Shown here one piece after another: positions 1 to 20,829 of a DNA stretch of 64,000 nt. The notes beneath the pieces are model-generated. The model worked only from the letters and a program-made list of their open reading frames with translations. It searched no databases and had not been told where the DNA came from. The stretch's first letter is position 1; each line of letters opens with the position of its first letter. Position numbers and translations under genes: made by a program. Source of the stretch: Escherichia coli (GTDB lineage Bacteria; Pseudomonadota; Gammaproteobacteria; Enterobacterales; Enterobacteriaceae); assembly GCF_013315695.1 (NCBI RefSeq), contig NZ_CP054353.1; one strand, written 5' to 3'.

Positions 1-603
1 CTGCTTATATAAATGGGCCTGATACCCAGCGACAATACCCAGTAAGAGAAGAATGAACAGAAGTAAATTACGGCAACGTAGCCCGGACGTGCCGGTTAAA
101 GGATGCCTTGTCGGCCAGCCGTATCCCAGCGAAAAACTGATATGCGTTCCAACGGGAATAATGACTATCCACCAGTACTCACCACCGACTAATGAGACTA
201 ACAAAACACCCAGCCAGGGAAGCATAAGATCTGCCAACCAACCTGAAACCATCTGGCGAAATTGATAATCTGCCAGATGTAGCGTGATTATCCAGCCAAC
301 CAGGGTTAATAAAGCGGGAACTAAAAAAAGACATTGTCGCCAGGCGGCTATTTCTCTGTTTTCTGGTGCGCTATCGCCCGCCCACACTCGCCCAGAGAAA
401 AATAGCAGTAATGCGCCCAGCGTCAGCATAAAGACGTTGAGTAGAAGATAAATTGTTGGTGTAAAGAGTAAATTGCAAAACTCAAGAATAGCGGCAAGCC
501 CGGCCCCCAGCATGGCAACAACCGCTGCCAAAAATTGCGCCAGTATGGGGATGCCAAAAAAAGTCATTACCAGCGAGGTCAAAATCCATTTTCCGTTTTG
601 CAT
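1..603 (-). CDS. Hypothetical polytopic inner-membrane protein, 5' part only (about 201 codons in window; 3' end lies beyond position 1)
   Basis: Reverse-strand frame opens with ATG at 603..601 (MQNGKWILTSLVMTFFGIPILAQFLAAVVAML...) and stays open to position 1; several hydrophobic segments. Not in the ORF track, presumably because no stop falls inside the window. Identity not recognised. Confidence 0.45.
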   Translation of the reverse strand, partial: MQNGKWILTSLVMTFFGIPILAQFLAAVVAMLGAGLAAILEFCNLLFTPTIYLLLNVFMLTLGALLLFFSGRVWAGDSAPENREIAAWRQCLFLVPALLTLVGWIITLHLADYQFRQMVSGWLADLMLPWLGVLLVSLVGGEYWWIVIIPVGTHISFSLGYGWPTRHPLTGTSGLRCRNLLLFILLLLGIVAGYQAHLYKQ

Positions 604-686
604 TATTCTTTCCATTCTTGCTGAATGGCGAAATTATACTCCCCGATAACCCTCGCCCCCTCTGGACACTTTTCCTAAATAAAGGC

Positions 687-724
687 GAAAAAAAACGGGA
701 CCTTTTGGCCCCGTTCTGTTTTTT
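687..724 (-). terminator. Rho-independent terminator downstream of glgP (probably bidirectional)
   Basis: Hairpin ACGGGACC-TTTT-GGCCCCGT at about 695..714, flanked by an A-run on one side and a T-run on the other; sits 8-40 nt past the glgP stop. Confidence 0.6.
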
Positions 725-731
725 AGCGAAC

Positions 732-3197
<2,466 letters not shown>

Positions 3198-4631
3198 CTA
3201 TTTCAAGCGATAGTAAAGCTCACGGTACGACTTCGCCGCGACCTGCCAGCTAAAATCCATTGCCATAGCCTGACGTTGCACAAACCGCCACAGTGAAGGA
3301 CGGGACCACAGTACAAAAGCACGTCGAATAGCCCGTAATAGCGACCAGGCATTACTATCTTCAAAGACAAACCCACTGGCGACGCCATCTGCAAGGTTCT
3401 CAAGAGAACAGTCAGAAACCGTATCAGCAAGCCCACCGGTGCGCCGCACTAACGGCAGCGTACCGTACTTCAATCCATAAAGTTGCGTTAAGCCGCACGG
3501 TTCAAAACGGCTGGGCACCAGAATGACGTCCGCGCCGCCCATAATGCGATGCGAAAATGCTTCGTGATAGCCAATCTGAACGCCCACCTGGCCGGGGTAT
3601 TCCGCTGCCGCCGCAAGGAAACCTTCCTGCAGCACCGGATCGCCCGCGCCGAGTAGCGCCAGTTGCCCGCCCTGCTCCAGAAGACCCGGTAAGGCCTCCA
3701 GCACCAGGTCGAGACCTTTCTGGCTGGTCAGACGGCTCACCACTGCAAAAAGCGGCACTTTATCGTCAACCTTAAGCCCCATTGCGATTTGTAACTGGCG
3801 CTTATTTTCCGCTTTATCTTCCAACGTATCGCGGGTGTAACGCGAGGCCAACAGTAAGTCCGTCTCTGGACTCCAGATTTTCTCGTCCACGCCGTTCAGT
3901 ACGCCGGAAAGACGCCCTTCACGGTGACGCTGTTGCAACAGACCTTCCATACCGTAGGCAAACTGCGGTTCGGTGATCTCGCGAGCGTAGGTTGGGCTGA
4001 CTGCCGTAATGTGATCGGCATAGTACAGACCGGCCTTCAGGAAAGAGATTTGTCCGTTGAATTCCAGCCCATGAATATTAAAGAATGACCATGGCAATTG
4101 GATGTCATTCATATGATGTGCATAAAACATGCCTTGATAGGCCAGGTTGTGCACAGTAAACACCGACTTCGCCGGACGCCCGCGCGCCGCCAGATACGCA
4201 GGCGCAAGACCTGCATGCCAGTCGTGCGCATGCACCACATCAGGACGCCAGAATGGGTCAAGCCCGCTGGCCATTTCTGCCCCAACCCACCCCAGCAGCG
4301 CAAAACGCAATACGTTGTCGGTATAGGCAAATAAGTTGGTATCGTGATACGGGCTTCCCGGACGATCATAGAGATGCGGCGCGTCAATCAGGTATATGCC
4401 AACCCCGTTGTAATGACCGAACAACAGCGTGATATGTCCGGCGAAGGTATCACGACGGGATACTACCTGCGCATCGGTCACGCCACGGCGAATATCGGGA
4501 AATGCAGGCAACAGTACGCGAGCGTCAACGCCGTCTGCGATTTGTGCTGCGGGTAATGCCCCAATAACATCAGCCAGACCGCCGGTTTTAAGCAGCGGGA
4601 ACATCTCTGAACATACATGTAAAACCTGCAT
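3198..4631 (-). CDS. glgA: Glycogen synthase (ADP-glucose transglucosylase)
   Basis: 477-aa ORF; N-terminal KTGGLADV motif; sits between glgC and glgP. Confidence 0.97.
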
Positions 4632-5926
4632 TATCGCTCCTGTTTATGCCCTAACTTCCGTAGCATTTCGCGCGTTACCAGCACGATGCCTTCTTCTGAA
4701 CGATAGAAACGACGTGCATCTTCCTCTGCGTTTTCACCAATCACCATGCCTTCCGGGATAACACAAGCACGATCGATGACGCAGCGGCGCAGACGGCACG
4801 AGCGACCTACCCATACTTCCGGTAACAATACGGCGGAATCAATGTTGCAGAATGAATTCACGCGAACGCGCGAGAACAGAACGGACTGCACCACCACCGA
4901 ACCGGAGATCACACAACCGCCGGATACCAGTGAGTTAAGGGTCATCCCGTGGCTACCGGAGCGATCCTGCACGAATTTCGCTGGCGGTAATGATTCATTG
5001 TAGGTGCGAATTGGCCAATTGCGATCGTACATATCCAGTTCCGGCACCACAGAGGCCAGATCGAGGTTCGCTTTCCAGTAAGCTTCAAGCGTACCCACAT
5101 CGCGCCAGTACGGCTCGGCATCCGGGTCGGATTGTACGCAAGAGAGCGGGAACGGATGCGCATAGGCCAGACCGGCTTCGGTGATCTTGGGAATCAAATC
5201 TTTGCCAAAGTCGTGGCTGGAGTTCTCATCGCGATCGTCTTCTTCCAGCAGTTCATACAGATAGTCGGCGTCAAAGACGTAGATACCCATACTCGCCAGA
5301 GATTTGCTCGGATCGTTCGGCATTGACGGTGGGTTAGCAGGTTTTTCAACGAATTCGATAATTTTATCGTTCTCATCAACCGCCATAACGCCAAATGCGG
5401 AGGCTTCTTCAATCGGTACTGGCATACAAGCAACGGTGCAACGTGCGCCTTTTTCGACGTGGTCGATAAGCATACGCGAGTAGTCTTGCTTGTAGATATG
5501 GTCGCCCGCCAGGATCACCACGTATTCCGCTTTATAACGGCGGATAATGTCGAGGTTTTGGGTAACTGCATCTGCGGTGCCGCGATACCAGTTTTCCCCT
5601 TTCATTCTCTGCTGTGCTGGCAGCAGAGCGACAAACTCGTTCATTTCTTCATTGAAGAATGACCAGCCGCGCTGAATGTGCTGCACCAGAGTGTGGGACT
5701 GGTACTGGGTGATCACGCCCATACGACGGATCCCGGAGTTGATGCAGTTAGACAGCGCAAAGTCGATAATGCGGAACTTACCGCCGAAGTGTACGGCCGG
5801 TTTTGCTCGCTTATTGGTTAAATCCTTCAGGCGGGTACCACGTCCTCCCGCCAGTATCAGGGCAACAGATTTCAATGGCAGCTGGCGCGCCAACATTAAG
5901 TGATCGTTCTTCTCTAAACTAACCAT
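4631..5926 (-). CDS. glgC: Glucose-1-phosphate adenylyltransferase
   Basis: ORF track starts 12 codons upstream (5962); the ATG at 5926..5924 with GGAG 8 nt upstream gives the 431-aa protein starting [33 protein letters not shown]; its stop overlaps the glgA start by 1 nt. Confidence 0.95.
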
Positions 5927-5943
5927 GACTAACTCCTTTTTTA

Positions 5944-7917
5944 TCATCTCTGGAACACACACAATCCGTGTGCAGGTCCCTGCCAGACAGCCGTAATCAC
6001 TGGGTTATCCTCTCCAGCGAATGGGGGAATGGCGTGCCACTCCCCAGCAGGTAAAACAATCTCTGTTACCTCAAGCGTGGCGTTAATTGCGATCAAAAAG
6101 CGATCCGAGAGCAGAATTTGCAGCTGTTTCGGCCCGTTTTGCCACTCATCCGTGCTTAAAGGTTGAGCATATCGATTTAGCCAACGGACATTGCCGTCGC
6201 CTTCTTCCCACCAGCGATTCTCCATCAAAGCGGGAATGCGCTTGCGCAGATGGATTAACGCGGCGGTAAATGCGGTTAAACCACTGCTTGCCTGCGACCA
6301 GTCCAACCAGGTTAATTGGTTATCCTGACAGTAGGCATTGTTATTGCCATGCTGGCTGTGACCATGTTCGTCACCGGCCAGTAACATCGGCGTACCCTGG
6401 GAGAGCAACAACGTTGTTAACAGGGCGTGAATGCTGTCGCGCCGCCGTTCAACCAGATCAAGAGTACCGCCTAACCCTTCTTTACCATGATTGTTACTGT
6501 AATTGTTGTTGGTCCCGTCGCGATTTTCTTCTCCGTTTGCTTCATTGTGTTTATGGTTGAAGCAAACGCAGTCGCGAAGCGTAAAACCGTCATGCGCGGT
6601 GACGAGATTAATCGCGGCACTCGGCAGACGACCATTACGTTTAAAAACATCGCTGGAGGCAGCAAAACGCCCGGCAAACGCCCCCAGAGGCAAATCATAA
6701 TGCAGCCAGAAACGACGGGCAGCATCGCGGAAATGATCGTTCCACTCGGCAAACAGCGGCGGGAAATTTCCCACCTGATAACCACCAGGAGCAATATCCC
6801 ACGGTTCAGCAATTAACTTCACCTGCGAGAGCACCGGGCAGTTCTGGATAGCGGTAAACAACGGCGCATCCTGACGGAACTCTGGCGTACGGCCCATGAC
6901 TGCCGCCAGATCAAAGCGGAAACCATCGACGTGGCAGGTTTCTACCCAATAACGCAGGCAAGCGCTGGCATAATCCACTACCGCCGGATGACTCAAATTG
7001 AGCGTGTTACCACAACCGGTCCAGTTGTGATAATCGCCGTCTTCTCTTATCCAATAATAGCTACGGTTGTCGATCCCACGCAGCGAGAATAACGGGCCGT
7101 CGAGGTCTAGTTCCGCACTATGGTTGAGCACGATATCAAGAATGACTTCGATACCCGCTTTATGCAGTGCTTTGATTGCATCGCGAAACTCATCCAGCGC
7201 CGTTTCTGGGGAGCAGGCATACGCCGGATGCAGCGCAAACATCGCCACCGGGTTATAACCCCAGTAGTTACTTAGACCCATACGTTGCAGGCGTGGTTCG
7301 CTGGCAAACTGCGCCACCGGCAGCAGTTCCAGCGCGGTAATGCCCAACTGTTTCAAATAGTTGATCATCACCGGATGCCCGAGGGCTTTATAAGTGCCAC
7401 GGATCTCGACCGGGATCTCCGGATGCAGGTACGTTAATCCTTTGACATGGGCTTCATAAATGATGGTGCTGCCCCATGGCGTGCGCGGCGGGGCATCATC
7501 TTCCCAGTCATAGTGATCAACCACCACTACGCATTTCGGCGCAATGGCGGCGTTGTCGCGATAGTCAGGTTCATTATGACCGGCGTGTAGCAGCGGGTTA
7601 TCTTTAAACTCCCCGTCAATTTGCCGCGCGCAAGGATCAATCAACAACTTCGCCGGGTTAAAGCGATGCCCCTCGGCGGGTTGCCAGGGGCCATGAACGC
7701 GATAACCATAACGCAAACCCGGACGCGCATCCGGCAGATAACCGTGCCAAATGTCGCCACTGTGCCCTGGCAAGTCATAGCGATGTTCCTGGCCATTGGC
7801 GTCAAAGACACACAGCTCTACCCGCTCGGCATGAGCGGAGAAAAGTGTGAAGTTGACGCCCTGACCGTCGTAATGCGCGCCGAGGGGTGCGGGTTTGCCA
7901 ATGGCGAGTTGTGTCAT
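5944..7917 (-). CDS. glgX: Glycogen debranching enzyme
   Basis: 657-aa ORF, GH13-type sequence; overlaps the glgB stop by 4 nt. Confidence 0.97.
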
Positions 7918-10100
7918 TCTGCCTCCCGAACCAGCCAGATAGTGGCCAGCGGTGGTAGTGTCAGGCTTAGTGAATGCTGACGACCGTGGCTGGCAATCTC
8001 ATCGCTGTGTACCGTGCCGCCATTGCCGGCATTACTGCCGTGATAGTGCATGGAATCGGTATTGAGGATCTCACGCCATTTACCCGGCTGGTTAATGCCG
8101 AAGCGATAATCATGACGCGGCACCGGAGTAAAGTTACTGGCAACGATGATTTCGTTACCCTCTTTATCGCGACGCACAAAGATCAGCACCGAGCGTTCTT
8201 TGTCATCCACCACCAGCCATTCAAAGCCGTACGGGTCAAAATCCAGTTCATGCATTGCTTTATGGTGGCGGTAGGTGAGGTTCAGATCGCGCACCAGACG
8301 CTGGACACCGTGGTGCCAGTTATCGCCGCCTTCCAACAGATGCCAGTCGAGGCTGGCGTCATGGTTCCACTCGCGGCCCTGGGCAAATTCGTTCCCCATG
8401 AACAGCAGTTTCTTGCCCGGGAATGCCCACATCCAGCCATAGTAGGCGCGCAGGTTAGCGAATTTCTGCCATGCGTCGCCCGGCATCCGGTCGAGAATCG
8501 ATTTTTTACCGTGGACCACTTCATCATGCGACAACGGTAGGACGAAGTTTTCAGTGTAGTTGTAGAGCATCCCGAAGGTCAGTTTATCGTGATGATACTG
8601 ACGATAAATCGGGTCGAGCTTCATGTAGTCCAGGGTGTCATGCATCCAGCCGAGGTTCCACTTGTACCAGAAGCCCAGACCGCCCATATCCTGTGGACGA
8701 GAAACGCCAGGGAAATCGGTAGACTCCTCCGCCATTGTCACCGCACCGGAAACCTGCTCACCAAGAATACGGTTGGTATTACGCAAGAATTCAATCGCTT
8801 CAAGATTCTCGCGACCGCCAAATTCGTTCGGGATCCACTCCCCCTCTTTACGGCTGTAGTCGCGATAAATCATTGACGCCACCGCATCGACGCGCAGCGC
8901 ATCAATACCAAAACGTTCAATCCAGTAAAGCGCGTTACCGACAAGGAAGTTACTAACTTCACGGCGACCATAGTTGTAGATCAGCGTGTTCCAGTCCTGA
9001 TGATAGCCTTCGCGCGGATCGCTGTGTTCATACAAGTTCGTGCCATCAAATTCGGCAAGCGCAAAGTCATCGGTCGGGAAGTGGCCTGGCACCCAGTCGA
9101 GAATCACGTTCAGACCAGCTGCGTGTGCGGCATCAATGAAATAACGGAAGTCGTCGCGAGTACCAAAACGGCGGGTCGGTGCATACAGGCCGGTTGGCTG
9201 ATAACCCCAACTGCCATCGAAGGGATGCTCGTTAATGGGCAGTAGCTCGAGATGGGTAAAGCCCATCCATTTAGCATAAGGCACAAGTTGATCGGCCAGC
9301 TCGCGGTAGCTTAACCAGAAATTGTTGTCGGTGTGGCGACGCCAGGAGCCCAGGTGAACTTCATAAATAGAGATTGGCGCATCAAACTGATTCGCTTTTT
9401 TGCGCTCTTCAGTCTGCACAACCTTTTCCGGCAGCCCGCAAATAAGAGACGCGGTTTCCGGGCGCATTTGCGCTTCGAAGGCATAAGGGTCGGACTTCAG
9501 ACGCAAGTTGCCATTGGCATCAATCATCTCATATTTATAGAGCTGACCGTTATGCGCCCCAGGGATAAACAGTTCCCAGATGCCGCTCTCTTTACGCAGG
9601 CGCATCGGATGACGGCGACCGTCCCAGTAGTTGAATTGCCCAACCACCGAGACCCGACGGGCGTTTGGAGCCCAGACAGAAAAACGCGTACCTGTGACGC
9701 CATCCATAGTATCTGCATGCGCGCCTAAGGTTTCATACGGGCGCAGGTGAGTACCTTCAGATAATAGCCAGGCATCCATTTCCTGGATTAGCGGACCAAA
9801 ACGGTAAGGATCATCTATCAGGTTTTGCTGACCATGCCAGACAACAGCCAACTGATAGCGGAAAAAATTCTTACGTCGCGGAATGACACCGCTAAAGAAT
9901 CCACGGGAGTCGAGACACTCCAGTTTTGCGAGTTTGCGCCCGGTTTTCGGTTCAATCACCCACACATCGGTAGCGTCGGGTAAAAGGGCACGGACTTCCA
10001 GTCCCGCGGTGGTTTTATGCATCCCCAGTACGGAAAAAGGATCCGCAAAATGGCCTGCAATTAGCGCGTTAATCACGTCTCTATCGATACGATCGGACAT
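7914..10100 (-). CDS. glgB: 1,4-alpha-glucan branching enzyme
   Basis: 728-aa ORF, GH13 branching-enzyme sequence; first gene of glgBXCAP. Confidence 0.97.
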
Positions 10101-10372
10101 GCTTGTCTTCCTGTTTTATTGTGTCACCCCATCCAACTGAATTTTTGACTTCTGGTTGTGACATTTTTTTGACCTGAACGGCGCAGCACTCTGTGCATCC
10201 TCTCTGCGTCGTCCTCACTTCAGGTAAGGCTGTGAATACTCGTGTATTCCGCCACCCTTAAAGAATAGCCAATGCTCTATTTAACTCCCGGTAAATCATG
10301 AAACATCTGCGCTTACTCCTGTATTACGCACTAGCAGGGGCGGCATCGCGCCCCAGATTTAATGAATAAAGA

Positions 10373-11476
10373 TTACGCCAGTTGACGAAGCATCCGACGC
10401 AGCGGCTCCGCGGCCCCCCACAGCAGCTGGTCGCCCACGGTAAAGGCTGACAGGAACTCCGGTCCCATATTCAGCTTACGCAGGCGGCCTACCGGCGTGG
10501 TCAGCGTGCCGGTAACGGCAGCTGGGGTTAGCTCACGCATAGTGATTTCCCGATCGTTCGGAACGACTTTCGCCCACGGATTGTGCGCAGCCAGCAGTTC
10601 TTCCACGGTCGGAATAGACACATCTTTTTTCAATTTAATAGTGAATGCCTGGCTGTGGCAGCGCAATGCCCCGACACGCACACATAAACCATCTACCGGA
10701 ATTACGGAAGATGTGTTGAGGATCTTGTTGGTTTCCGCCTGCCCTTTCCACTCTTCGCGGCTCTGACCGTTATCAAGCTGTTTGTCGATCCACGGAATCA
10801 GGCTACCCGCCAGCGGCACGCCAAAGTTATCTACCGGCAGCTCACCGCTACGGGTTAAGGTTGTGACTTTGCGTTCGATATCGAGAATAGCAGAGGACGG
10901 GGTCGCGAGTTCATCTGCCACATGGCCATACAGATGGCCCATCTGGGTTAATAACTCACGCATATGTCGCGCACCACCGCCGGAAGCGGCCTGGTAGGTT
11001 GCAACGGACACCCAATCAACAAGATCATTGGCGAATAAACCACCCAACGACATCAACATCAGGCTTACGGTACAGTTACCGCCAACAAAAGTCCTGATGC
11101 CATTATTTAATCCGTCGGTAATGACGTCCTGATTGACGGGGTCAAGAATGATGATGGCGTCATCTTTCATGCGCAGAGATGATGCTGCGTCAATCCAGTA
11201 ACCTTGCCATCCGCTTTCACGAAGCTTTGGATAGATTTCGTTGGTATAATCGCCGCCCTGACAGGTCACAATGATATCGAGGGCCTTTAGCGCCTCCAGA
11301 TCAAAGGCATCCTGAAGTGTGCCAGTGGTTCCGCCAAAAGACGGCGCAGCCTGACCAAGCTGAGAAGTAGAAAAGAAGACAGGGCGAATGGCGTCGAAGT
11401 CGCGCTCTTCAACCATGCGTTGCATGAGAACGGAGCCGACCATACCGCGCCAGCCGATAAAACCAACATTTTTCAT
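10373..11476 (-). CDS. asd: Aspartate-semialdehyde dehydrogenase
   Basis: ORF track starts 20 codons upstream; ATG at 11476 gives the 367-aa protein [17 protein letters not shown]... with the active-site [10 protein letters not shown]. Confidence 0.95.
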
Positions 11477-11667
11477 AAGCGTTTTTTCCTGCAAAGATGT
11501 GTGCTGTATAAATGTGCCGGTCTCCTCCTGGCACATCTTTCACCATACAAAAAGCAGCCAAAGTCGCAAGTGAAATTAATCAATGATAGCGAAGCCATCA
11601 GTAATGCGACTTATCCTGCTTTGTTAGCACGCAGAAAGTCCGCGGCAATTATCAGGGAATTTGAGTT

Positions 11668-12261
11668 ATGAATGAAATCATTTCTGCAGCAGTTTTATTG
11701 ATCCTGATTATGGATCCGCTCGGAAACCTACCTATTTTCATGTCCGTACTGAAACATACTGAACCGAAAAGACGGCGGGCAATCATGGTGCGAGAGTTGC
11801 TTATTGCTCTCCTGGTGATGCTGGTGTTCCTGTTTGCGGGTGAGAAAATTCTGGCATTTCTCAGCCTGCGAGCAGAAACCGTCTCCATTTCTGGCGGCAT
11901 CATTCTGTTTCTGATCGCCATTAAGATGATTTTCCCCAGCGCTTCAGGAAATAGCAGCGGGCTTCCGGCAGGTGAAGAGCCGTTTATCGTGCCGTTGGCA
12001 ATTCCGTTAGTCGCCGGGCCGACTATTCTCGCCACGCTGATGTTGTTGTCTCATCAGTACCCGAATCAGATGGGACATCTGGTAATTGCTCTGCTGCTGG
12101 CCTGGGGTGGCACCTTTGTCATCCTGCTACAGTCTTCGCTATTTTTACGTCTGCTGGGCGAGAAAGGGGTGAATGCACTTGAACGCCTGATGGGATTGAT
12201 TCTGGTGATGATGGCAACTCAGATGTTCCTCGACGGCATTCGAATGTGGATGAAGGGGTAA
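11668..12261 (+). CDS. yhgN: MarC-family (UPF0056) inner-membrane protein
   Basis: 197-aa hydrophobic ORF, divergent from asd. Confidence 0.9.
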   Translation: MNEIISAAVLLILIMDPLGNLPIFMSVLKHTEPKRRRAIMVRELLIALLVMLVFLFAGEKILAFLSLRAETVSISGGIILFLIAIKMIFPSASGNSSGLPAGEEPFIVPLAIPLVAGPTILATLMLLSHQYPNQMGHLVIALLLAWGGTFVILLQSSLFLRLLGEKGVNALERLMGLILVMMATQMFLDGIRMWMKG

Positions 12262-12269
12262 GGTTCAAA

Positions 12270-12306
12270 CAGGTGCTGCACACAACCAGACGCGGCACCT
12301 GTTTTA
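12270..12306 (+). terminator. Rho-independent terminator of yhgN
   Basis: CAGGTGC (12270..12276) pairs with GCACCTG (12295..12301), followed by TTTT; ends immediately before the stop of the DprA-like gene on the other strand. Confidence 0.6.
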
Positions 12307-13509
12307 TTACCTGAACTGATAATGACCTTCGCCCAATCGAATAACCCTTCCCTCTTCTTCTGCGCGGTTCAGCCACACACTAATTTGTTCGATGGTTAAA
12401 CCAGTACAAGACGCCAGCCTTTCAATACTTATCGATTCCTTTGCAAGGATCGCCAGTTCCGCCACAAAGAGTTGATAAAAATCGACAGGCGTATGCGCGG
12501 GCATTACTGCGTAATTTGCGTCATCTTCATGCAGCGAAAACAGTTCTGGTTGAACGTTACGGAGTGCTTTGTCATACATCAGCCCAGGAACGTCTGGCAG
12601 TCTGATCGTCACATTCTCAGCCTGTTCAGCACTCCATGACGCCCCATTTTCTACTAATCGTGAATTGGCTGATTGCACATCCTGATTTGGTTTAACCAGA
12701 ACAGGCAGCCACTGATGTTTTAACGCCTCCATCGCTCCGGTTATCGTTCCACCGGTCATTCCCGCACGTACAACCATTGCGCTTTCAGCAAGGCAATAAA
12801 TATATTTATTCCGCGCCATTGCATTGCCGACGGTGAAACGTACCTCTGGGTAAAACGGTGAAATCAACACCAGGTTGCCTGCTATAAGCCCTTCACGCCA
12901 TTTCACTAACGTACTCGTTTTTAACAAGCTATCAGCTAATACGCCAACGGCAGTTCCCCCGGCCTCCAGTGCCGACGCCATTGCACATTCATCAATACCT
13001 CGCGCACCACCAGAGATAACGCAAATCCCCTGTTGGGCCAGTTTCGCTGCCAGTTGTTGGGTATAGCGCAAATCGGCAGTCGGAGCATCTCGCGAGCCAA
13101 CAATCGCCATACCTTCCGCTTGCAGTAATGCTTTATTCCCGCAGCCAAATAAAACGGGAGGTGCATCCGTTCGCAATCGGTTTTTCAAGCGAACGGGATA
13201 ATCGGCATCTCCGCGGGTTAAGATCCATAAACCGGCGCGTTGCCACTTATCTACCGCCAACGCCAGACTATGACCACGCGCCAGCAAGCCAAGAATACGC
13301 TCCTGAGAAATACGCGGATCGCTCCAGCCTGTAAGTTTCTCTTGCGGTTGCGGCACCAGAAGATCGGCGGGACTGATACGTTGGTGCTTCAGCCATAATG
13401 CAAACTTCCCCCATTCACTATTACTAAGAGGTTTATACTCACTCGCCGCCGCGCGAGAAAAATCGCTGGTTAGCAGGAGAGTTGCTTGTGCATTGGCTGA
13501 AAGATTCAT
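12307..13509 (-). CDS. DprA/Smf-like protein; putative partner (PsyrA/RqlI-like) of the upstream helicase
   Basis: 400 aa from ATG at 13509..13507 (the ORF-track start at 13602 lies inside the upstream gene). Rossmann motif VISGGARGIDECAMASAL typical of DprA, and a C-terminal winged-helix-like tail. Start shares one base with the upstream stop (TGATG). Confidence 0.75.
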   Translation of the reverse strand: MNLSANAQATLLLTSDFSRAAASEYKPLSNSEWGKFALWLKHQRISPADLLVPQPQEKLTGWSDPRISQERILGLLARGHSLALAVDKWQRAGLWILTRGDADYPVRLKNRLRTDAPPVLFGCGNKALLQAEGMAIVGSRDAPTADLRYTQQLAAKLAQQGICVISGGARGIDECAMASALEAGGTAVGVLADSLLKTSTLVKWREGLIAGNLVLISPFYPEVRFTVGNAMARNKYIYCLAESAMVVRAGMTGGTITGAMEALKHQWLPVLVKPNQDVQSANSRLVENGASWSAEQAENVTIRLPDVPGLMYDKALRNVQPELFSLHEDDANYAVMPAHTPVDFYQLFVAELAILAKESISIERLASCTGLTIEQISVWLNRAEEEGRVIRLGEGHYQFR

Positions 13510-15605
13510 CAATTTTTTACCGAGGTAGAAGCAAGGGCAAGAGGATAAACCGTCGGGCAACCTGCCTGGCGTAACAGTGCTGTCAGAACTGTCAGCGTCC
13601 ATGCAGAATCCACGATATCATCAACCAGCAACGCCGGACCTGGCATCAAAGGAGGGGTAATCACAAACGCCCCGTCGAGATTTTGACACTGGTGAAAACG
13701 GTTTTGCTGCATTTTCTGCGGTGGATTGTCCACGACTTTTTCAATGGCATCAATAAAAGGTAAGCCAAGTTTCGCCGCCAGTCGCCGGGCAAAATCAGGA
13801 ACCAGGTCGAGGTGCCTTAATGAAGGAACGCAGCATACCCAGGTTGGTTCAGGATGCGGATTCCAGCGTTGGCGAACCATTTCCGCACATGCTTCTACCA
13901 GCTCATCACTTAAGCGCCCCGTTTTTTTCTCCTGTGCTACCTGCTTTCCCCACCCGGAATCTCCCCAACGAGAAAGGATTCGCCCCGTAGATCCTTGTAA
14001 ACCCGCAGGCAAGTTCCCTTTAAATCCGTATTGCGTAAAAGCCCCAGCTGCCACCTGTTTATTGAGATTTAACGGCAGGTCAGCGTGTTTAATAAATAAA
14101 TTTGCCGCATGGAGTAAGCCGCTATCAATGTCGGGCGACAATAACGGATGCTGAAGACAACTGCTACATTTACCACAACGTTCGGCACTTGGCTCATCGA
14201 GTGCACGGCGCAGAAATTGCATTTTGCACTCCTTGGTCGTGATATAGCTTTCAACGTCTGCCAGTTCACTTTTTCTCTGATTCATCAAATGGTTAATTCG
14301 TTCATGATCAGGAGAAAAACTGACGATAGTTCTGCGCCATAATTTCTCGGTATACACCACAGGCGATGGATTTTCCGCTACCAATAATTTCAGTGCTTTT
14401 TCTATTTGCCCATAACGAAGATTCGTCCGTTGTTCAATGCCTCGTAGGGTAAGACCGTCATTCTCGCTAAGTACGTTGAGTATTTCATGAATTTGCGCCT
14501 CCGCAGGAAAGGCGCTTTCACGGAAGAATTGATGAATAGCGCGGTCTTCACCACCACAAAGCAATATGCCAACTGCGGAATCTATAGCACGCCCGGCACG
14601 CCCCACCTGTTGGTAGTAACCGACAATAGACCCCGGCATCTGATAATGAATGACGAAACCTAAATCAGGTTTATCAAACCCCATACCTAATGCCGTCGTC
14701 GCGACCAGCACTTTGATTTTATTTGCCAGCAGTGCCTGCTCCAGATATTCCCTGGCAGTATTAGAATCTTCCGCGCCTTCACAAGTCACGCCGCTGTAGT
14801 AAGCAAATGCACTGATACCATTTTTCCTTAACCACTCGGCGACAAGTTCAGCATCGCGAGTCGTCAGGGTATAAACAATTCCCGATTTGGAAAACTGAGG
14901 GATAACCGTTGCTAACCATGCCAGACGGGATGACTGTTCTCCTAAGACTAAGGCATCAAGCGCCAAACTTTCGCGAGCCAGCGTTCCACGCTGAATCACA
15001 ATGTCACCCAATTGCTGACGGATATCCTCAACAACACGGTTATTCGCTGTCGCGGTTGTACCCAGAACAGGGGTATTCGCAGGCAGTTGGCGCAAAATAT
15101 CTAATATACGTCGGTAATCCGGGCGAAAATCGTGGCCCCAATCAGAGATGCAGTGCGCCTCGTCGACCACAAGCAAGCCAATACGATCGGCTATAGGATA
15201 TAAAACCGTTTCGATAAAGTCCTGGTTTGCCAAACGTTCCGGGGAAACCAGCAAGCAATCGACCTCACCTTGCAGCAACTTATCGCTAATGCGCTGCCAT
15301 TCTTCCCTGTTTGTAGAATTCAACGTTTCAGCCGTAATACCTAACCGTTCAGCGGCGGCAACCTGGTTACGCATCAGGGCAAGCAAAGGAGAGATGATAA
15401 TTGTCGGGCCAGCGCCGCGATCGCGGAAGATTTTACTGGCGATGAAGTACACGGCACTTTTCCCCCAGCCGGTGCGCTGTACAACCAGCAGTTTTCGCCG
15501 CTGATTAACCACTGCATCTATGGCTTCCCATTGCCCTTCCCTGAAAGTAGCGGTGGTATTTCCTAACATCCGCTGTAAAAGCAATTCAGCTCCGTGCTTT
15601 TCCAT
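13509..15605 (-). CDS. RecQ-like DEAH helicase fused to a C-terminal ComF-type PRTase-like domain (PsyrT/RqlH-like)
   Basis: 698 aa. Helicase motifs TGWGKS, VVDEAHCISDWGHDFRPDY, LGTTATA, ATTALGMGFDKPD, YYQQVGRAGRA; CGKCSSC zinc-like motif; C-terminal segment with LLVDDIVDSAWT resembling the PRPP-binding loop of type-I PRTases. Confidence 0.8.
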   Translation of the reverse strand: MEKHGAELLLQRMLGNTTATFREGQWEAIDAVVNQRRKLLVVQRTGWGKSAVYFIASKIFRDRGAGPTIIISPLLALMRNQVAAAERLGITAETLNSTNREEWQRISDKLLQGEVDCLLVSPERLANQDFIETVLYPIADRIGLLVVDEAHCISDWGHDFRPDYRRILDILRQLPANTPVLGTTATANNRVVEDIRQQLGDIVIQRGTLARESLALDALVLGEQSSRLAWLATVIPQFSKSGIVYTLTTRDAELVAEWLRKNGISAFAYYSGVTCEGAEDSNTAREYLEQALLANKIKVLVATTALGMGFDKPDLGFVIHYQMPGSIVGYYQQVGRAGRAIDSAVGILLCGGEDRAIHQFFRESAFPAEAQIHEILNVLSENDGLTLRGIEQRTNLRYGQIEKALKLLVAENPSPVVYTEKLWRRTIVSFSPDHERINHLMNQRKSELADVESYITTKECKMQFLRRALDEPSAERCGKCSSCLQHPLLSPDIDSGLLHAANLFIKHADLPLNLNKQVAAGAFTQYGFKGNLPAGLQGSTGRILSRWGDSGWGKQVAQEKKTGRLSDELVEACAEMVRQRWNPHPEPTWVCCVPSLRHLDLVPDFARRLAAKLGLPFIDAIEKVVDNPPQKMQQNRFHQCQNLDGAFVITPPLMPGPALLVDDIVDSAWTLTVLTALLRQAGCPTVYPLALASTSVKN

Positions 15606-15707
15606 CTTTATCTCCTGCGATCTTTAGGCAGTGATTAGAACGGATTATTAGCAGGTAAATTTGCGAGAGAGATCAAAAAGATGAAGAGAGGAGATAAGAG
15701 AAATGAA

Positions 15708-15735
15708 TTACTGCGAGCAAGCTCGCAGTAATTTG
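15708..15735 (-). terminator. Terminator-like perfect hairpin downstream of gntU
   Basis: TTACTGCGAGC-AA-GCTCGCAGTAA at 15708..15731, about 14 nt past the gntU stop, with T-rich flank. Confidence 0.5.
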
Positions 15736-15744
15736 TCGCAGTAA

Positions 15745-17085
15745 TTAACTCAACAGCTGGAACGCAATCATCCCAACGATGGCACCAACAGTGCCGAGTA
15801 TGGTTTCCATCATGGTCCAGGTTTTCAGCGTTTCGGCTTCGGTCGCGCCGGTAAATTTACCGAACAACCAGAAACCGGCGTCGTTAACGTGGCTGACAAC
15901 AATCGAACCACCGGCGATACAAATCGACAGCGCCGCCATTTGCGCACCGGAGTAGTTCAGTTGTTCAATAACCGGCATCACCAGTCCCACCGCCGTTAAA
16001 CAGGCAACGGTGGCAGAACCCTGAATGATGCGCACTGCAGCTGCCAGCACGAAGCAGGTGATGGCAATCGGCAGGCCCATGCCGGTTAACGCTTCGCCCA
16101 GTGCCGGACCTACGCCTGAGTCAACCAGCACCTGTTTGAACACGCCGCCCGCACCAATCACCAGCAGAATGATCCCCGCCGGTTGCAGCGCGTGACCGCA
16201 AATTTCCATCACTTTATCTTTCGGCATGCCCTGACGCATTGCCAGACCGTAAATCGCCACCAGGCAAGCAACCAGAATCGCGGTAAACGGATGACCAATA
16301 AACTCGAACCATTCGTAAGCAGTAGAGCCTTCTGGCACAAAACGCGCGGCAATGGTTTTCAGCCCCACCAGCACCAGTGGCAACAGGATCAGCGACAGGC
16401 TGAATCCGAAGGACGGCATTTTGCCTTCGCCGAGATGCGGTTCGCTGATGTCGTCAGGAATATGCAACTCCACGTAGCGGCTGATGAAATTACCCCACAG
16501 CGGCCCGGCAATAATCATTCCCGGAATTGCCGCACACAGGCCAATCAGGATCATCCAGCCAAAGTCGGCGTTCATCTGCGATGCCAGCAGCATTGGCGCT
16601 GGTCCAGGCACCAGGAACGCAGCCGCGGCCGCCACGCCTGCAAATAATGGGATTACCAGCTTCACCAGGTTCGTACCGGTGTGGCGCGCCATTGAGAAAG
16701 CAACGCTAATCAGCAGAACAATCGCCACTTCAAAGAACAACGGCAACGCACAGACCAGCCCCGCAAGGCCGATGGCATAATGCGCGCGGCTGTGACCGAA
16801 GGATTTGAGCATTTTGACGGCAATCTGATCGACTGCGCCGGTTTCATGTAAGATCTTGCCAAACATGGCTCCCAGGGCGACAACCACCGCCAGGAAGCCG
16901 AGGGTGCCTCCCATCCCTTTTTCCATCGTCGCTGCGATTTTATCGAGCGGCATACCGGAAAAAAGGCCAGCCCCCATAGACACCACCATTAAAGCCAGGA
17001 AAGCGTGCATACGCGCCTTCATGACTAAAAACAGCAGCAGTAAAACAGACCCTACTGCTGTTAAAACAAGCGTTAATGTAGTCAC
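15745..17085 (-). CDS. gntU: Low-affinity gluconate:H+ symporter
   Basis: 446-aa GntP-family permease; annotated start is GTG at 17085..17083, 3 nt after the gntK stop (see finding on the internal hairpin). Confidence 0.9.
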   Translation of the reverse strand: MTTLTLVLTAVGSVLLLLFLVMKARMHAFLALMVVSMGAGLFSGMPLDKIAATMEKGMGGTLGFLAVVVALGAMFGKILHETGAVDQIAVKMLKSFGHSRAHYAIGLAGLVCALPLFFEVAIVLLISVAFSMARHTGTNLVKLVIPLFAGVAAAAAFLVPGPAPMLLASQMNADFGWMILIGLCAAIPGMIIAGPLWGNFISRYVELHIPDDISEPHLGEGKMPSFGFSLSLILLPLVLVGLKTIAARFVPEGSTAYEWFEFIGHPFTAILVACLVAIYGLAMRQGMPKDKVMEICGHALQPAGIILLVIGAGGVFKQVLVDSGVGPALGEALTGMGLPIAITCFVLAAAVRIIQGSATVACLTAVGLVMPVIEQLNYSGAQMAALSICIAGGSIVVSHVNDAGFWLFGKFTGATEAETLKTWTMMETILGTVGAIVGMIAFQLLS

Positions 17086-17088
17086 TAC

Positions 17089-17616
17089 TTATTTGCCTTT
17101 TTTAATAACCTCAATGGTGCTTGCCACAACACCTTCCAGCGGTTGATCGATATCCACCACCAGTACATCGGTTTCGTCCGCACCCGGCTCCTGCAGCGTT
17201 TCAAACTGCGTCACTAACATTTGGGTTTTAAAGAAATGGCCTTTGCGCGCTTTCAGGCGGCTTTCAATCACATCAAAATCGCCTTTCAGGTAGATGAACG
17301 AGAGATTCGGATTACCTTCACGCAGCAAGTCGCGATAGTGTTTTTTCAGTGCAGAACAGACGATCAGCGACACTTTATTGGTACGCTGCATGGCAAACGC
17401 GGCGTCGTTCAGCGCCTGCAACCACGGTTTGCGATCGTCGTCATTCAGCGGTTCACCAGACGCCATTTTTTCGATATTGCGCCGTGGATGGAGGAAATCG
17501 CCATCAAGAAACGCGGCATGAAGTTGATGCGCCACTTCACTGGCGACCGCAGATTTGCCGCTGCCCGATACGCCCATCAAGACGTAAATGTGGTGATCAT
17601 GGTTAGTCGTGCTCAA
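17089..17616 (-). CDS. gntK: Gluconokinase (thermoresistant)
   Basis: Protein matches GntK from (L)STTNHDHHIYVLMGVSGSGKS (P-loop); the codon at 17616..17614 is TTG, so the gene seems to use a TTG start; the ORF track extends 7 codons further up to another TTG. Confidence 0.9.
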   Translation of the reverse strand: MSTTNHDHHIYVLMGVSGSGKSAVASEVAHQLHAAFLDGDFLHPRRNIEKMASGEPLNDDDRKPWLQALNDAAFAMQRTNKVSLIVCSALKKHYRDLLREGNPNLSFIYLKGDFDVIESRLKARKGHFFKTQMLVTQFETLQEPGADETDVLVVDIDQPLEGVVASTIEVIKKGK

Positions 17617-17646
17617 AGTGGTGCCCCCACAATACAAGAATTAAAA

Positions 17647-17675
17647 ATGTTACGGGTAACTGTTATCGGTAACAT
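17647..17675 (-). promoter_or_regulatory. Tandem GntR operator half-palindromes in the gntK promoter
   Basis: ATGTTACGGGTAAC and TGTTATCGGTAACAT lie adjacent, 10-40 nt upstream of gntK; match the palindromic GntR operator ATGTTACCGGTAACAT. Confidence 0.6.
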
Positions 17676-17754
17676 TGTCCAGCCGGACAATATCAGAAGC
17701 AATATCCATCCGTGCCTTAAGTGTATAAGTGTGAGCTACTTCAAATTTGTGGGC

Positions 17755-18750
17755 TTAAATAGATCCGCCCGGTGACAAGGTGAAACCTAAATCTAACATT
17801 TTCGGTGTCACAGATTCGCCACGAATACGCGCCAGCAGGCGTTCAGCGCCAATACTGCCCATCCGCTCACGCGGCGTCAGTACGCTCGCCAACCGTGGTT
17901 CCATCACCTGACCAATGTCATGACCATGGAAACCGGCAATCGCCATATCGTCAGGAACTTTCAACCCCAGACGCTGGCATTCAAACGCCGCGCCGACCGC
18001 CAGGTCATCATTAGTACAGAACACGCCATCCAGCTGCGGATATTCCCGCCTCGCCTGGCGAATCAGTTCAATACCGGAAGAGTAAGAAGAAGATTGTTCA
18101 ACCATCACGCTATACGGCACCAGGCCTGCATCCAGCATCGCCTGCTCATATCCCTTCTGTTTGATGATAGTACGTTCGTCGAGGCGTGCGCCGAGATAGG
18201 CAATGTGACGATGCCCGCGAGCAATAATGGCGGTGGTCATCTGGCGTGCCGCTTCAAAGTTATCAAAACCGACGGCGATATCGAGACACGGCGACTGGCT
18301 GTCCATCAGTTCCACCACGGGAATCCCCGCCACTTCAATCATCTTTAAGGTGCGCGGCGTGTGCGTACGTTCAGTGAGGATCAGGCCGTCGATATTCCAG
18401 GAGAGCATGGATTCGAGGCGTTCTTGCTCCATTTCCGGTTTATAACCGTAGTGGGCCAGCATGGTCTGATAACCGTGCGCGTCGGTGACGCTTTCGATTC
18501 CGCGTAATACTTCCGCAAAAACCTGGTTGGTGAGAGAAGGTAACAGGACGCCAATCGCCCGGCTGGTGGCGTTAGAGAGGATATCGGGCGCACGATTGGG
18601 AATATAGCCCAGTTCATCAAGAGCGGCGGCAATCTTGCCGCGTAGAGCGACGGAAACCTGCTCCGGGTTACGCAAAAAGCGGCTGACCGTCATTTTGGTC
18701 ACGCCTACACGGTCAGCCACATCCTGAAGTACGGGTCTTTTCTTTTTCAT
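17755..18750 (-). CDS. gntR: LacI-family gluconate repressor
   Basis: 331-aa ORF; N-terminal HTH LQDVADRVGVTKMTVSRFL. Confidence 0.97.
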   Translation of the reverse strand: MKKKRPVLQDVADRVGVTKMTVSRFLRNPEQVSVALRGKIAAALDELGYIPNRAPDILSNATSRAIGVLLPSLTNQVFAEVLRGIESVTDAHGYQTMLAHYGYKPEMEQERLESMLSWNIDGLILTERTHTPRTLKMIEVAGIPVVELMDSQSPCLDIAVGFDNFEAARQMTTAIIARGHRHIAYLGARLDERTIIKQKGYEQAMLDAGLVPYSVMVEQSSSYSSGIELIRQARREYPQLDGVFCTNDDLAVGAAFECQRLGLKVPDDMAIAGFHGHDIGQVMEPRLASVLTPRERMGSIGAERLLARIRGESVTPKMLDLGFTLSPGGSI

Positions 18751-18973
18751 CGTCCTGAAGGTACAAAAGAGATAGATTCTCTTAGTTTAACACGGACGCA
18801 TCAGAACCTTCCCGGGGAAAACAGTGCTTGTTTACAATTATTAGATATACACTAAATCAATTGCATCGCATTGTGCTAACGACGCGGCAAAACCCCGGAA
18901 GCGTACATCAGCACGCGACCGGAGCGAGCGAGGAAGCCTGCAAAAAGGCAGGCTTCAAAGATGCCGTTGAGTT

Positions 18974-19669
18974 TTAAACTGGCGGCAGATCGAACAGTAA
19001 CACTTCGCTGTCGCTATCCGCATGAATGGCGATTGCCTGCTCATCCCAGATTGCCAGACCATCGCTGGTCGAGGCTTTCACGCCGTTAATGGTGACATTG
19101 CCTTTCACCACCTGGATCCAGACGCGGCGTTCAGCGGCAATCTGATGCACTGACTGCTCATCTTTCAGCAATGCCCAACGATACAGTTCCATATCCTGAT
19201 GCACTTTCAGCGAACCATCTCGCGCATCCGGCGAGAGCACCAGCTGTTTGCCCTGTACGGCATCGAAGCGACGCTGTTCATAACGCGGCGTAATGCCGTT
19301 TTCTTCAGGCATGATCCAGATCTGATACAGATGCAGACGCTCGGTGCTGCTTGGGTTGTACTCAGAGTGACGGATACCCGTACCCGCACTCATAATCTGG
19401 AACTCACCCGCCGGAACCTGCTCTTTATTGCCCATGCTGTCCTGGTGCTCAACAGTACCTTCCAGCACGTAGGTCAAAATTTCCATATCTTTATGCGGGT
19501 GAGTGCCAAAGCCCTGCCCTGCTTCAATCACGTCGTCGTTAATCACGCGCAGCGCGGAGAAGCCCATAAAGTTCGGATCGTAATAGTTGGCAAAAGAGAA
19601 AGTATGCCAGGAATCCAGCCAGCCATGATTTGCATGACCACGTTCATTTGCTTTGCGTAAGTAGATCAT
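18974..19669 (-). CDS. yhhW: Pirin-like cupin (quercetin 2,3-dioxygenase)
   Basis: 231-aa ORF with cupin His motifs (GFGTHPHKDMEILTYVLEG). Confidence 0.9.
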   Translation of the reverse strand: MIYLRKANERGHANHGWLDSWHTFSFANYYDPNFMGFSALRVINDDVIEAGQGFGTHPHKDMEILTYVLEGTVEHQDSMGNKEQVPAGEFQIMSAGTGIRHSEYNPSSTERLHLYQIWIMPEENGITPRYEQRRFDAVQGKQLVLSPDARDGSLKVHQDMELYRWALLKDEQSVHQIAAERRVWIQVVKGNVTINGVKASTSDGLAIWDEQAIAIHADSDSEVLLFDLPPV

Positions 19670-19791
19670 TTGTATTCGCCCCCTGAATGTTTTCGATGGG
19701 CTTAGTGTGGACCCGATCTGCCTGGGATGATAGAGGGTGAAAATTGACCCCTCTGTTCAAAAAAATTGAACTATTCGAGGGGCCATCAAAC

Positions 19792-20829
19792 TTACTTCGC
19801 GAGAGTCACTGTGGAGGGAGAGGCTTGCTCAAAACCGCGTTCAAGGATTTCCAAATTGGTAAGAACTTCAGATTCCTTGACGTAATTTGGCGCACCATTG
19901 GTGATGGTTTGGTACAACGCATCATAAACGCGCCCGTAATCGCCCATCTCTGGCTTCATCTCTTCTCTGACCGTCACGCCTTCGTCATTGACATACTCCA
20001 GCACACCGACCGAATCATCCGCTGCGAATCCTGGTTCGCCCGGCATAATATTAGCCTTCAGGCTGGTTTCCTGCTGGTCGATACCGTATTTAATAAACGA
20101 ACCTTTCTTACCGTGAACGATAAATTTCGGATAATCGATTTTCACCAGATGGCTGGTTTTGACGATGGCTTTTAGATCGCCATAAAACAGCTGCGCTTCA
20201 AAGGTGTCGTCCGGATTGGCTTTATTACGCAGGCTGCGGATGTCATAAGCGACGTGATCCGGGCGACCGAACAGAGAAATAATCTGGTCCATCGTATGCA
20301 CACCAAGGCCATAGAACGCGCCATCCTGCGGCAGCCCAGGTTTGGTTTCTGCCACCGGGCGGTAATAGTCAAAATGGCTTTCCACTTCAACAATCTCTCC
20401 CAGCTTACCGCTTTCAATCGCTTTTTTCGCCGTCAGGAAGCAGGAATCAAAGCGACGATTCTGATACGGCGTGACGGTCAGCCCTTTGCTTTTCGCCAAC
20501 GCAAACAGCGCCTTCGCCTGGGCAAGCGTCGGGGTGAACGGTTTTTCGACCAGCACATTTTTCCCGGCTTCCAGCGCGCGCTTCGCGTATTCGAAATGGC
20601 TATCCGCGTGGGTGCAGACGACAACCAGCTTAACATCGGGATCGTTTAGCACTTCGTCGAGATCGCTGGTGAAATGGATATGAGAGTAAATGGGAGCCTG
20701 TTCTTCCGGCTTCGCATGGCGGCGAAAAATATGCGCGACATGCCAGCTATCCTTGCGGTTAAGTACATACGGCAGATGGTAACGGGTGGTGCTTTTGCCG
20801 AAGCCAATAAAGGCGCAGTTGATGACCAT
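19792..20829 (-). CDS. yhhX: Gfo/Idh/MocA-family NAD(P)-dependent oxidoreductase
   Basis: 345-aa ORF; N-terminal Rossmann INCAFIGFGKSTTRYHLPY. Confidence 0.9.
   Translation of the reverse strand: MVINCAFIGFGKSTTRYHLPYVLNRKDSWHVAHIFRRHAKPEEQAPIYSHIHFTSDLDEVLNDPDVKLVVVCTHADSHFEYAKRALEAGKNVLVEKPFTPTLAQAKALFALAKSKGLTVTPYQNRRFDSCFLTAKKAIESGKLGEIVEVESHFDYYRPVAETKPGLPQDGAFYGLGVHTMDQIISLFGRPDHVAYDIRSLRNKANPDDTFEAQLFYGDLKAIVKTSHLVKIDYPKFIVHGKKGSFIKYGIDQQETSLKANIMPGEPGFAADDSVGVLEYVNDEGVTVREEMKPEMGDYGRVYDALYQTITNGAPNYVKESEVLTNLEILERGFEQASPSTVTLAK

Follow-up and report, generated by a model that had tools for sequence, protein, structure and literature searches.

The first 603 positions of a 64,000-nucleotide stretch of Escherichia coli DNA (contig NZ_CP054353.1; hereafter the window) almost certainly hold the start of an intact accessory gene that encodes a membrane-anchored, PstS-like protein. 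A preliminary description, made from the letters alone, had reported here an open minus-strand frame with multiple hydrophobic helices next to glgP, and had suggested that this strain retains an intact version of a gene decayed to the pseudogene yzgL in K-12. The analysis presented here supports that suggestion. The same description had called the identity of the product unknown, and in this respect it is superseded, as the part within the window can now be described as the N-terminal membrane module of a fusion protein whose C-terminal part is a PstS-like binding domain. It is an ordinary accessory gene with a wide distribution, which has already been annotated and has long figured in lists as an island of E. 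coli O157.

The frame opens with an ATG at 603-601 on the minus strand and runs free of stops through 201 sense codons to position 1; glgP (732-3179, same strand) lies directly upstream, and the product is strongly hydrophobic, with six long helices predicted by AlphaFold2. All three points agree with what had been read from the sequence at the outset. Positions 1-730 and 1-20000 of the window are 100% identical to five complete genomes of human E. coli isolates, including MS 21-1 (NZ_CP146670.1), and 99.1% identical to SMS-3-5. A stop or frameshift just outside the window had been named as the observation that would undo the suggestion of an intact gene; instead, the five identical genomes continue the frame for 300 further codons (positions 5098-6000 of the MS 21-1 locus, L001) to a normal stop. 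The full gene comprises 501 codons (L001 5098-6603), and the window holds its 5' 40%. In MS 21-1, the Prokaryotic Genome Annotation Pipeline (PGAP) records it as a coding sequence and not as a pseudogene (WP_123005501.1, 'PstS family phosphate ABC transporter substrate-binding protein', where ABC stands for ATP-binding cassette). Homologues, whose absence would likewise have told against the suggestion, are present in several enterobacterial genera. We regard the frame as a real gene because it is intact in the identical genomes, has homologues at the same site and is under purifying selection. A 210-codon open reading frame (ORF) at 618-1250 on the plus strand lies wholly antisense to glgP and is almost certainly spurious; the length of an ORF alone is therefore weak evidence for a gene.

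The C-terminal part of the protein, encoded outside the window, matches Pfam PF12849 (PBP_like_2) over residues 246-481 (E = 6e-30; 105.4 bits, against a gathering cut-off of 27). The AlphaFold2 model of the protein has a predicted local distance difference test score (pLDDT) of 78, and its best Foldseek matches are the phosphate-binding proteins 4gd5, 4q8r and 9l8j (template modelling score, TM-score, 0.73-0.76; E = 1e-14 to 8e-15). According to this model, the domain is a two-lobe Venus flytrap with the PstS fold. Phosphate is bound in Clostridium perfringens PBP-1 by S11, T12, S13, S41, S59, R125, S129, G130 and T131 (PMC5381212), and a profile alignment places these ligands at A247, T248, A249, T279, A297, R368, S372, G373 and S374. 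Across 20 homologues, conservation of these residues is complete or no lower than 90%. The A-T-A sequence at 247-249 is canonical, because the phosphate-binding proteins compared with PBP-1, E. coli PstS included, carry Ala at the first ligand position and Leu at the third (PMC5381212), and T279 and S374 are conservative changes with respect to PBP-1. Eight of the nine positions are compatible (A247, T248, A249, T279, R368, S372, G373 and S374), the ninth being that of Ser59. The change from ASR to AQP at this place was also considered as the loss of an arginine ligand; this was ruled out, since the ligand is Ser59 and not Arg60 (PMC5381212). Judged by these residues, the pocket looks functional and would fit a phosphate-type oxyanion; its selectivity would be altered, or it would leave space for an ester substituent. 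Members of the same PstS-like subfamily that carry other N-terminal membrane anchors occur in Lentisphaeria, Opitutales and Clostridia. An 822-residue protein of an uncultured Clostridiales (L037 2978-5446) has the subfamily domain close to the N-terminus, and the roughly 460 residues after it have no Pfam match.

The membrane module (residues 1-205) matched no Pfam or NCBIfam family. Neither its sequence nor its fold resembled a known transporter family, ABC, tripartite ATP-independent periplasmic and tripartite tricarboxylate transporters among them, and it has no structural relative of a specific kind. Modelled alone from an alignment of 22 sequences, it is predicted by AlphaFold2 to form six helices (mean pLDDT 82.7; predicted template modelling score 0.81), the limits of which are given in Table 1. 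A HMMER scan of 1.84 billion cluster representatives returned only 46 relatives, most of them truncated E. coli fragments and a few of them full-length proteins of the same architecture at 31-43% identity. The six-helix inner-membrane bundle belongs to a very narrow, unnamed family. A Pfam match of the membrane part to Tetraspanin reached 14.6 bits where the cut-off is 32.1 and was set aside as noise caused by hydrophobicity; the weak matches of the full-length protein to Peptidase_A21 and Aca2_YdiL were disregarded for the same reason.

The edge gene is the first of three genes between glgP and glpD. The second encodes a 330-residue paralogue of the C-terminal domain of the fusion, with a lipoprotein signal and the lipobox LLAGC, and the third a membrane protein of about 200 residues that is intact in O157 and other Escherichia and frameshifted in the lineage of the source strain (in MS 21-1, L001 3477-4077). 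When the membrane-module alignment was compared with the 200-residue third gene product by hhalign, the two were matched with a probability of 96.4% (E = 1.2e-9, 162 columns), whereas the controls, the unrelated six-helix protein YhgN and the reversed sequence, gave 0.6%. The motifs GWxxARxTxPE and P-x-x-AQ-x-x-F-x-LGY are common to both, and the second of these coincides with the family motif of helix 5, which the fusion shares with its stand-alone paralogue. On the strength of this profile comparison, the third gene is a stand-alone homologue of the membrane module, which is a new result of the present analysis. Each of the two modules is thus encoded twice in the cluster, in the fusion and again separately, as a lipoprotein and a membrane protein. 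Because both modules occur fused and split in one cluster, the membrane module can be viewed as a working partner and not as a passive tether.

In an alternative form of the cluster, common in E. coli, a YbbD-family protein (236 residues) and a Cys-rich protein of 255 residues replace the lipoprotein gene (L004 2066-3546, from E. coli CH4790; also loci L010, L014, L015, L020 and L023). The 255-residue protein ends in the lipoprotein's own last residues, YDASSESPGK, which indicates that a cassette has taken the place of most of the lipoprotein gene and left only its last codons. Neither of the two proteins has a Pfam family. A reading of the cluster as a defence system was rejected, as PADLOC returned zero matches for the six cluster proteins submitted.

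Among 5426 complete E. coli genomes, 3347 contain at least 80% of the gene, about 1288 (~24%) give a partial match, mostly of the K-12 type, and about 791 (~15%) give no megablast match; NEBExpress, a derivative of E. coli B, has the full gene. Full-length relatives were found in Escherichia species, Pseudocitrobacter, Superficieibacter, Phytobacter, Intestinirhabdus, Klebsiella spallanzanii, unnamed Enterobacteriaceae, Limnobaculum and one Burkholderiaceae metagenome-assembled genome. In the Enterobacteriaceae loci with readable flanks the gene lies between glgP and glpD, with the exception of Intestinirhabdus, where glgP is not in view, and the order glgA-glgP-[gene]-glpD is kept in Escherichia, Pseudocitrobacter, Superficieibacter, Phytobacter and K. 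spallanzanii. The gene is located elsewhere in Limnobaculum and the Burkholderiaceae genome. All-against-all BLAST of flanking ORFs revealed no conserved neighbour at the loci outside the glgP-glpD site, and Pfam assigned unrelated functions to ten neighbours at such distant loci (e.g. TorA/TorC-like, Mfd, LolC-like, DUF2339 and OmpA). In an Intestinirhabdus alba-like locus (L006 1-9118), two tandem fusion paralogues directly follow the type VI secretion gene tssM, next to glpD, with PAAR, DUF6708 and a 407-residue gene upstream. In K. spallanzanii (L023 3600-9843), glgP and the fusion gene are separated by a 6.3-kb island, whose ORF translations read as an IclR-like regulator, a DapA-like lyase, a dehydratase, a major facilitator superfamily transporter and a glycerol-dehydrogenase-like gene; a second fusion copy in this species is broken into two ORFs.

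Ratios of nonsynonymous to synonymous substitution (dN/dS) are 0.15-0.34 for the membrane module of the fusion and 0.05-0.11 for its PstS-like part, 0.11 for the lipoprotein paralogue and 0.21-0.26 for the stand-alone membrane gene. Values so far below 1 indicate purifying selection, and thus that the genes are maintained where present. Between E. coli alleles (L001 5098-6603 against L003 and L004) dS reaches 0.27-0.60, compared with 0.13-0.145 in the adjacent glgP. Together with the mosaic nature of the K-12 remnant, this high divergence suggests that the locus carries old, recombining alleles.

In K-12, glpD and glgP are separated by 615 bp that contain yzgL (b3427, encoding 93 amino acids), and the preliminary statement that K-12 carries only this pseudogene there was correct. 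Bases 266-615 of the K-12 spacer correspond to the promoter region and first 74 codons of the edge gene, bases 1-278 to the spacer next to glpD together with the final codons of the third gene, and the two matches overlap in the microhomology CACTCGCCC at the deletion junction. By these alignments, yzgL is the product of a 2.84-kb deletion, consisting of 73 N-terminal residues followed by 20 out-of-frame residues from the 3' end of the third gene. YzgL is 76.5% identical to the present allele over residues 1-81 and sits at the same site between glpD and glgP, but the binding domain is missing entirely, as is context amounting to five of the six helices. At the DNA level yzgL is 97% identical to a phylogroup-A-type allele, and the remnant as a whole is a mosaic with an O157-like left part and a CH4790-like right part. 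A literature search for yzgL returned matches that were mostly unrelated by title. In E. coli O157:H7 the equivalent of this locus is O-island 133, and the O157 allele has only 90% DNA identity to the present one. In a screen, strain TUV93-0 secreted less through the type III system once O-island 133 had been deleted (PMC3378721; repeated in PMC10877973). REP-like repeats are found in the glpD-proximal spacer at about L001 3300-3460, and each E. coli genome has 4 to 40 matches to query positions 40-194 of this spacer.

The orientation of the protein in the membrane was approached through its charges. Over 22 homologues, the mean number of Lys and Arg residues is 1.8 at the N-terminus, 3.2 in the loop at 72-89 and 4.5 in the loop at 163-179, and the other loops of the module are acidic or neutral. 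The Lys/Arg-rich loop after helix 2 is probably cytoplasmic on this pattern. We infer that the PstS-like domain is periplasmic: helix 6 is preceded by a basic loop, the paralogue is an exported lipoprotein, and distant relatives have single N-terminal anchors. For a periplasmic binding domain the number of true spans must be odd. Helix 4, the least confident of the six, may thus fail to traverse the membrane and may be a re-entrant or interfacial segment instead of a full span. A plain six-span model conflicts with the positive-inside rule.

With regard to mechanism, we tentatively propose that the protein is a membrane-bound receptor for a phosphate-type anion, working via its own six-helix module; this is a reasonable possibility, short of a probable one. 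The periplasmic domain would close on a tetrahedral phosphate-type oxyanion or a phosphate ester via T248, T279, R368 and S372-G373-S374, an invariant Ala would take the place of the Asp or Ser that gives canonical PstS its selectivity, and the membrane module would act as the receiver for the binding domain, in signalling or in uptake. The best explanation overall, in which this mechanism is blended with the identity and anatomy of the protein, we hold to be somewhat probable. Several observations weigh against it. The protein scores 124.5 bits with the PstS-family model TIGR02136 of NCBIfam, under the cut-off of 206.6, and the position of Ser59, which is Asp56 in E. coli PstS and confers selectivity, is the invariant Ala297. 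In the membrane module only P19, F157 and Q195 are invariant, and no signature of catalysis or transport is obvious in the family alignment. If the N-terminus were cytoplasmic and all six helices spanned the membrane, the binding domain would come to lie inside the cell, and agreement with the charge pattern needs helix 4 to be no full span. The split membrane copy, given its frameshift, is probably dead in the lineage of the source strain. Finally, the Pho box CTGTCATAWAWCTGTCAY, with up to three mismatches allowed, has no match anywhere in the window, and membership of the Pho regulon was rejected on this ground.

Two other functional readings, both unlikely in our estimation and to a similar degree, draw on parts of the same evidence. 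The protein could be an extra membrane-tethered PstS that hands phosphate to the core PstCAB transporter, its six helices serving as an anchor only. The PstS fold, the near-complete ligand set and the PGAP name all fit such a role, and tethered binding proteins are the rule in Gram-positive bacteria. Yet the flanks of all 28 loci are free of ABC permease and ATPase genes, pstCAB included; tethering alone would call for far less than six helices that carry family-specific motifs; a separate and selected paralogue of the membrane module exists; and the score lies under the PstS-family cut-off. Alternatively, an envelope sensor or regulator might relay a phosphate-type signal through the module to, for example, a histidine kinase and so alter expression, including that of type III secretion in O157. 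The lowered secretion of TUV93-0 without O-island 133 (PMC3378721; PMC10877973) speaks for a sensor, as does the missing transporter signature; however, the protein lacks a cytoplasmic output domain, neither a kinase nor a regulator is linked to its gene, and the screen result was neither pursued further nor assigned to a gene. A sensor also overlaps with the receptor proposed above and does not exclude it.

There is very little to recommend the view that the gene is a non-functional relic drifting to loss that happens to be open in the source strain, although many truncated versions populate protein databases, a good part of the complete E. coli genomes retain the gene partially (~24%) or not at all (~15%), and the third gene is frameshifted in the source lineage. 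The selection results contradict this view and largely refute it, since dN/dS stays well under 1 in both modules across dS of 0.27-0.60; moreover, at least 80% of the gene persists in the 3347 genomes counted above, and the same site is conserved in other genera. Scarcely any probability, and marginally less than for a relic, is left to an accessory or immunity gene of type VI secretion. It was raised by tssM on one metagenomic contig, where the two tandem copies of Intestinirhabdus alba lie directly downstream with PAAR and DUF6708 nearby, and the YbbD-family gene of some E. coli clusters could be taken in the same sense. This link was rejected, because such a neighbourhood is seen only in Intestinirhabdus, the corresponding place in K. 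spallanzanii is taken by a metabolic island for the use of sugar acids, glgP is directly adjacent in all other genera and the distant loci have no conserved neighbour.

The features located within the window are collected in Table 1. PGAP places the start of the gene at the ATA at 606-604, one codon before ATG 603, where O157 has ATG-ATG. ATG 603 appears the more plausible start, because the Shine-Dalgarno-like GGAAAG at 613-608 precedes it. The TATAAT at 633-638 is missing from the list produced by a promoter scan. The terminator of glgP, with a fold of -19.4 kcal/mol (z = -3.6), separates glgP from the edge gene.

Table 1. Features of the edge gene and its upstream region in the window
Feature	Position	Strand	Basis
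First 201 of 501 codons (membrane module + PstS-like domain)	1-603	-	Translation; whole gene in identical genomes
Start of helix 6, residues 173-201 of 173-202; strongly basic loop before it	1-87	-	AlphaFold2
Helix 5, residues 145-165; family motif IPVGxQ/H-x-x-F-x-LGY	109-171	-	AlphaFold2 and alignment
Helix 4, residues 120-140; kink at 127, least confident part of the model	184-246	-	AlphaFold2
Helix 3, residues 83-110; R89, L94, P96, L101 and W104 nearly invariant	274-357	-	AlphaFold2 and alignment
Helix 2, residues 49-77	373-459	-	AlphaFold2
Helix 1, residues 2-42; long, second half deleted in Limnobaculum homologues	478-600	-	AlphaFold2 and alignment
Shine-Dalgarno-like GGAAAG, 4 nt upstream of ATG 603	608-613	-	Direct sequence reading
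Perfect -10 hexamer TATAAT, no good -35; candidate own promoter	633-638	-	Consensus match only
Intrinsic terminator of glgP, AACGGGGCC-AAAA-GGTCCCGTT then T run	688-715	-	Sequence and fold

Elsewhere in the window, overlapping genes annotated as DprA (12307-13602) and a RecQ family helicase (13509-15605) occupy 12307-15605 on the minus strand, between yhgN and gntU, where K-12 presumably has nothing. The pair looks like a 3.4-kb strain-variable insertion and is possibly a defence-type cassette.

As found, the gene is of little consequence, being a common accessory gene deleted in K-12; this accounts for the pseudogene yzgL, and the locus matches a long-listed O157 island. Its product departs from textbook PstS in its orphan six-helix anchor, in the missing selectivity Asp or Ser and in the absence of transporter genes, and a literature search for membrane-anchored PstS fusions found nothing relevant. 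It could matter more for this departure, for the occurrence of fused and split modules, which argues for joint work, and for the screen that ties loss of the island to lower type III secretion. The boldest extension, an undescribed, ABC-free, binding-protein-dependent device in fused and split form that senses or imports a phosphate-type compound and explains the reduced type III secretion of O157 mutants without O-island 133, is a speculation to which we give even less weight than to the tethered PstS or the sensor. Any function found would have escaped all work based on K-12.

Among known proteins, the short PstS subfamily (C. perfringens PBP-1, 4Q8R/4GD5; Synechocystis Sll0540, 9L8J) offers the closest comparison, with the same Venus-flytrap fold (TM-score 0.76) and eight of nine ligand positions identical, conservatively changed or as in E. 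coli PstS. The present protein nevertheless shares only 20-23% identity with this subfamily, has Ala at the Ser59/Asp56 position, is fused to a six-helix membrane module and comes without pstCAB partner genes. A second likeness is with the tripartite ATP-independent periplasmic transporters (DctP/DctQM), the tripartite tricarboxylate transporters (TctC/TctBA) and ABC importers with fused binding domains. Unlike these, the present system has only six helices, with no large permease subunit and no ATPase; like them, it combines a binding module with a membrane module, and the two occur both fused and separate.
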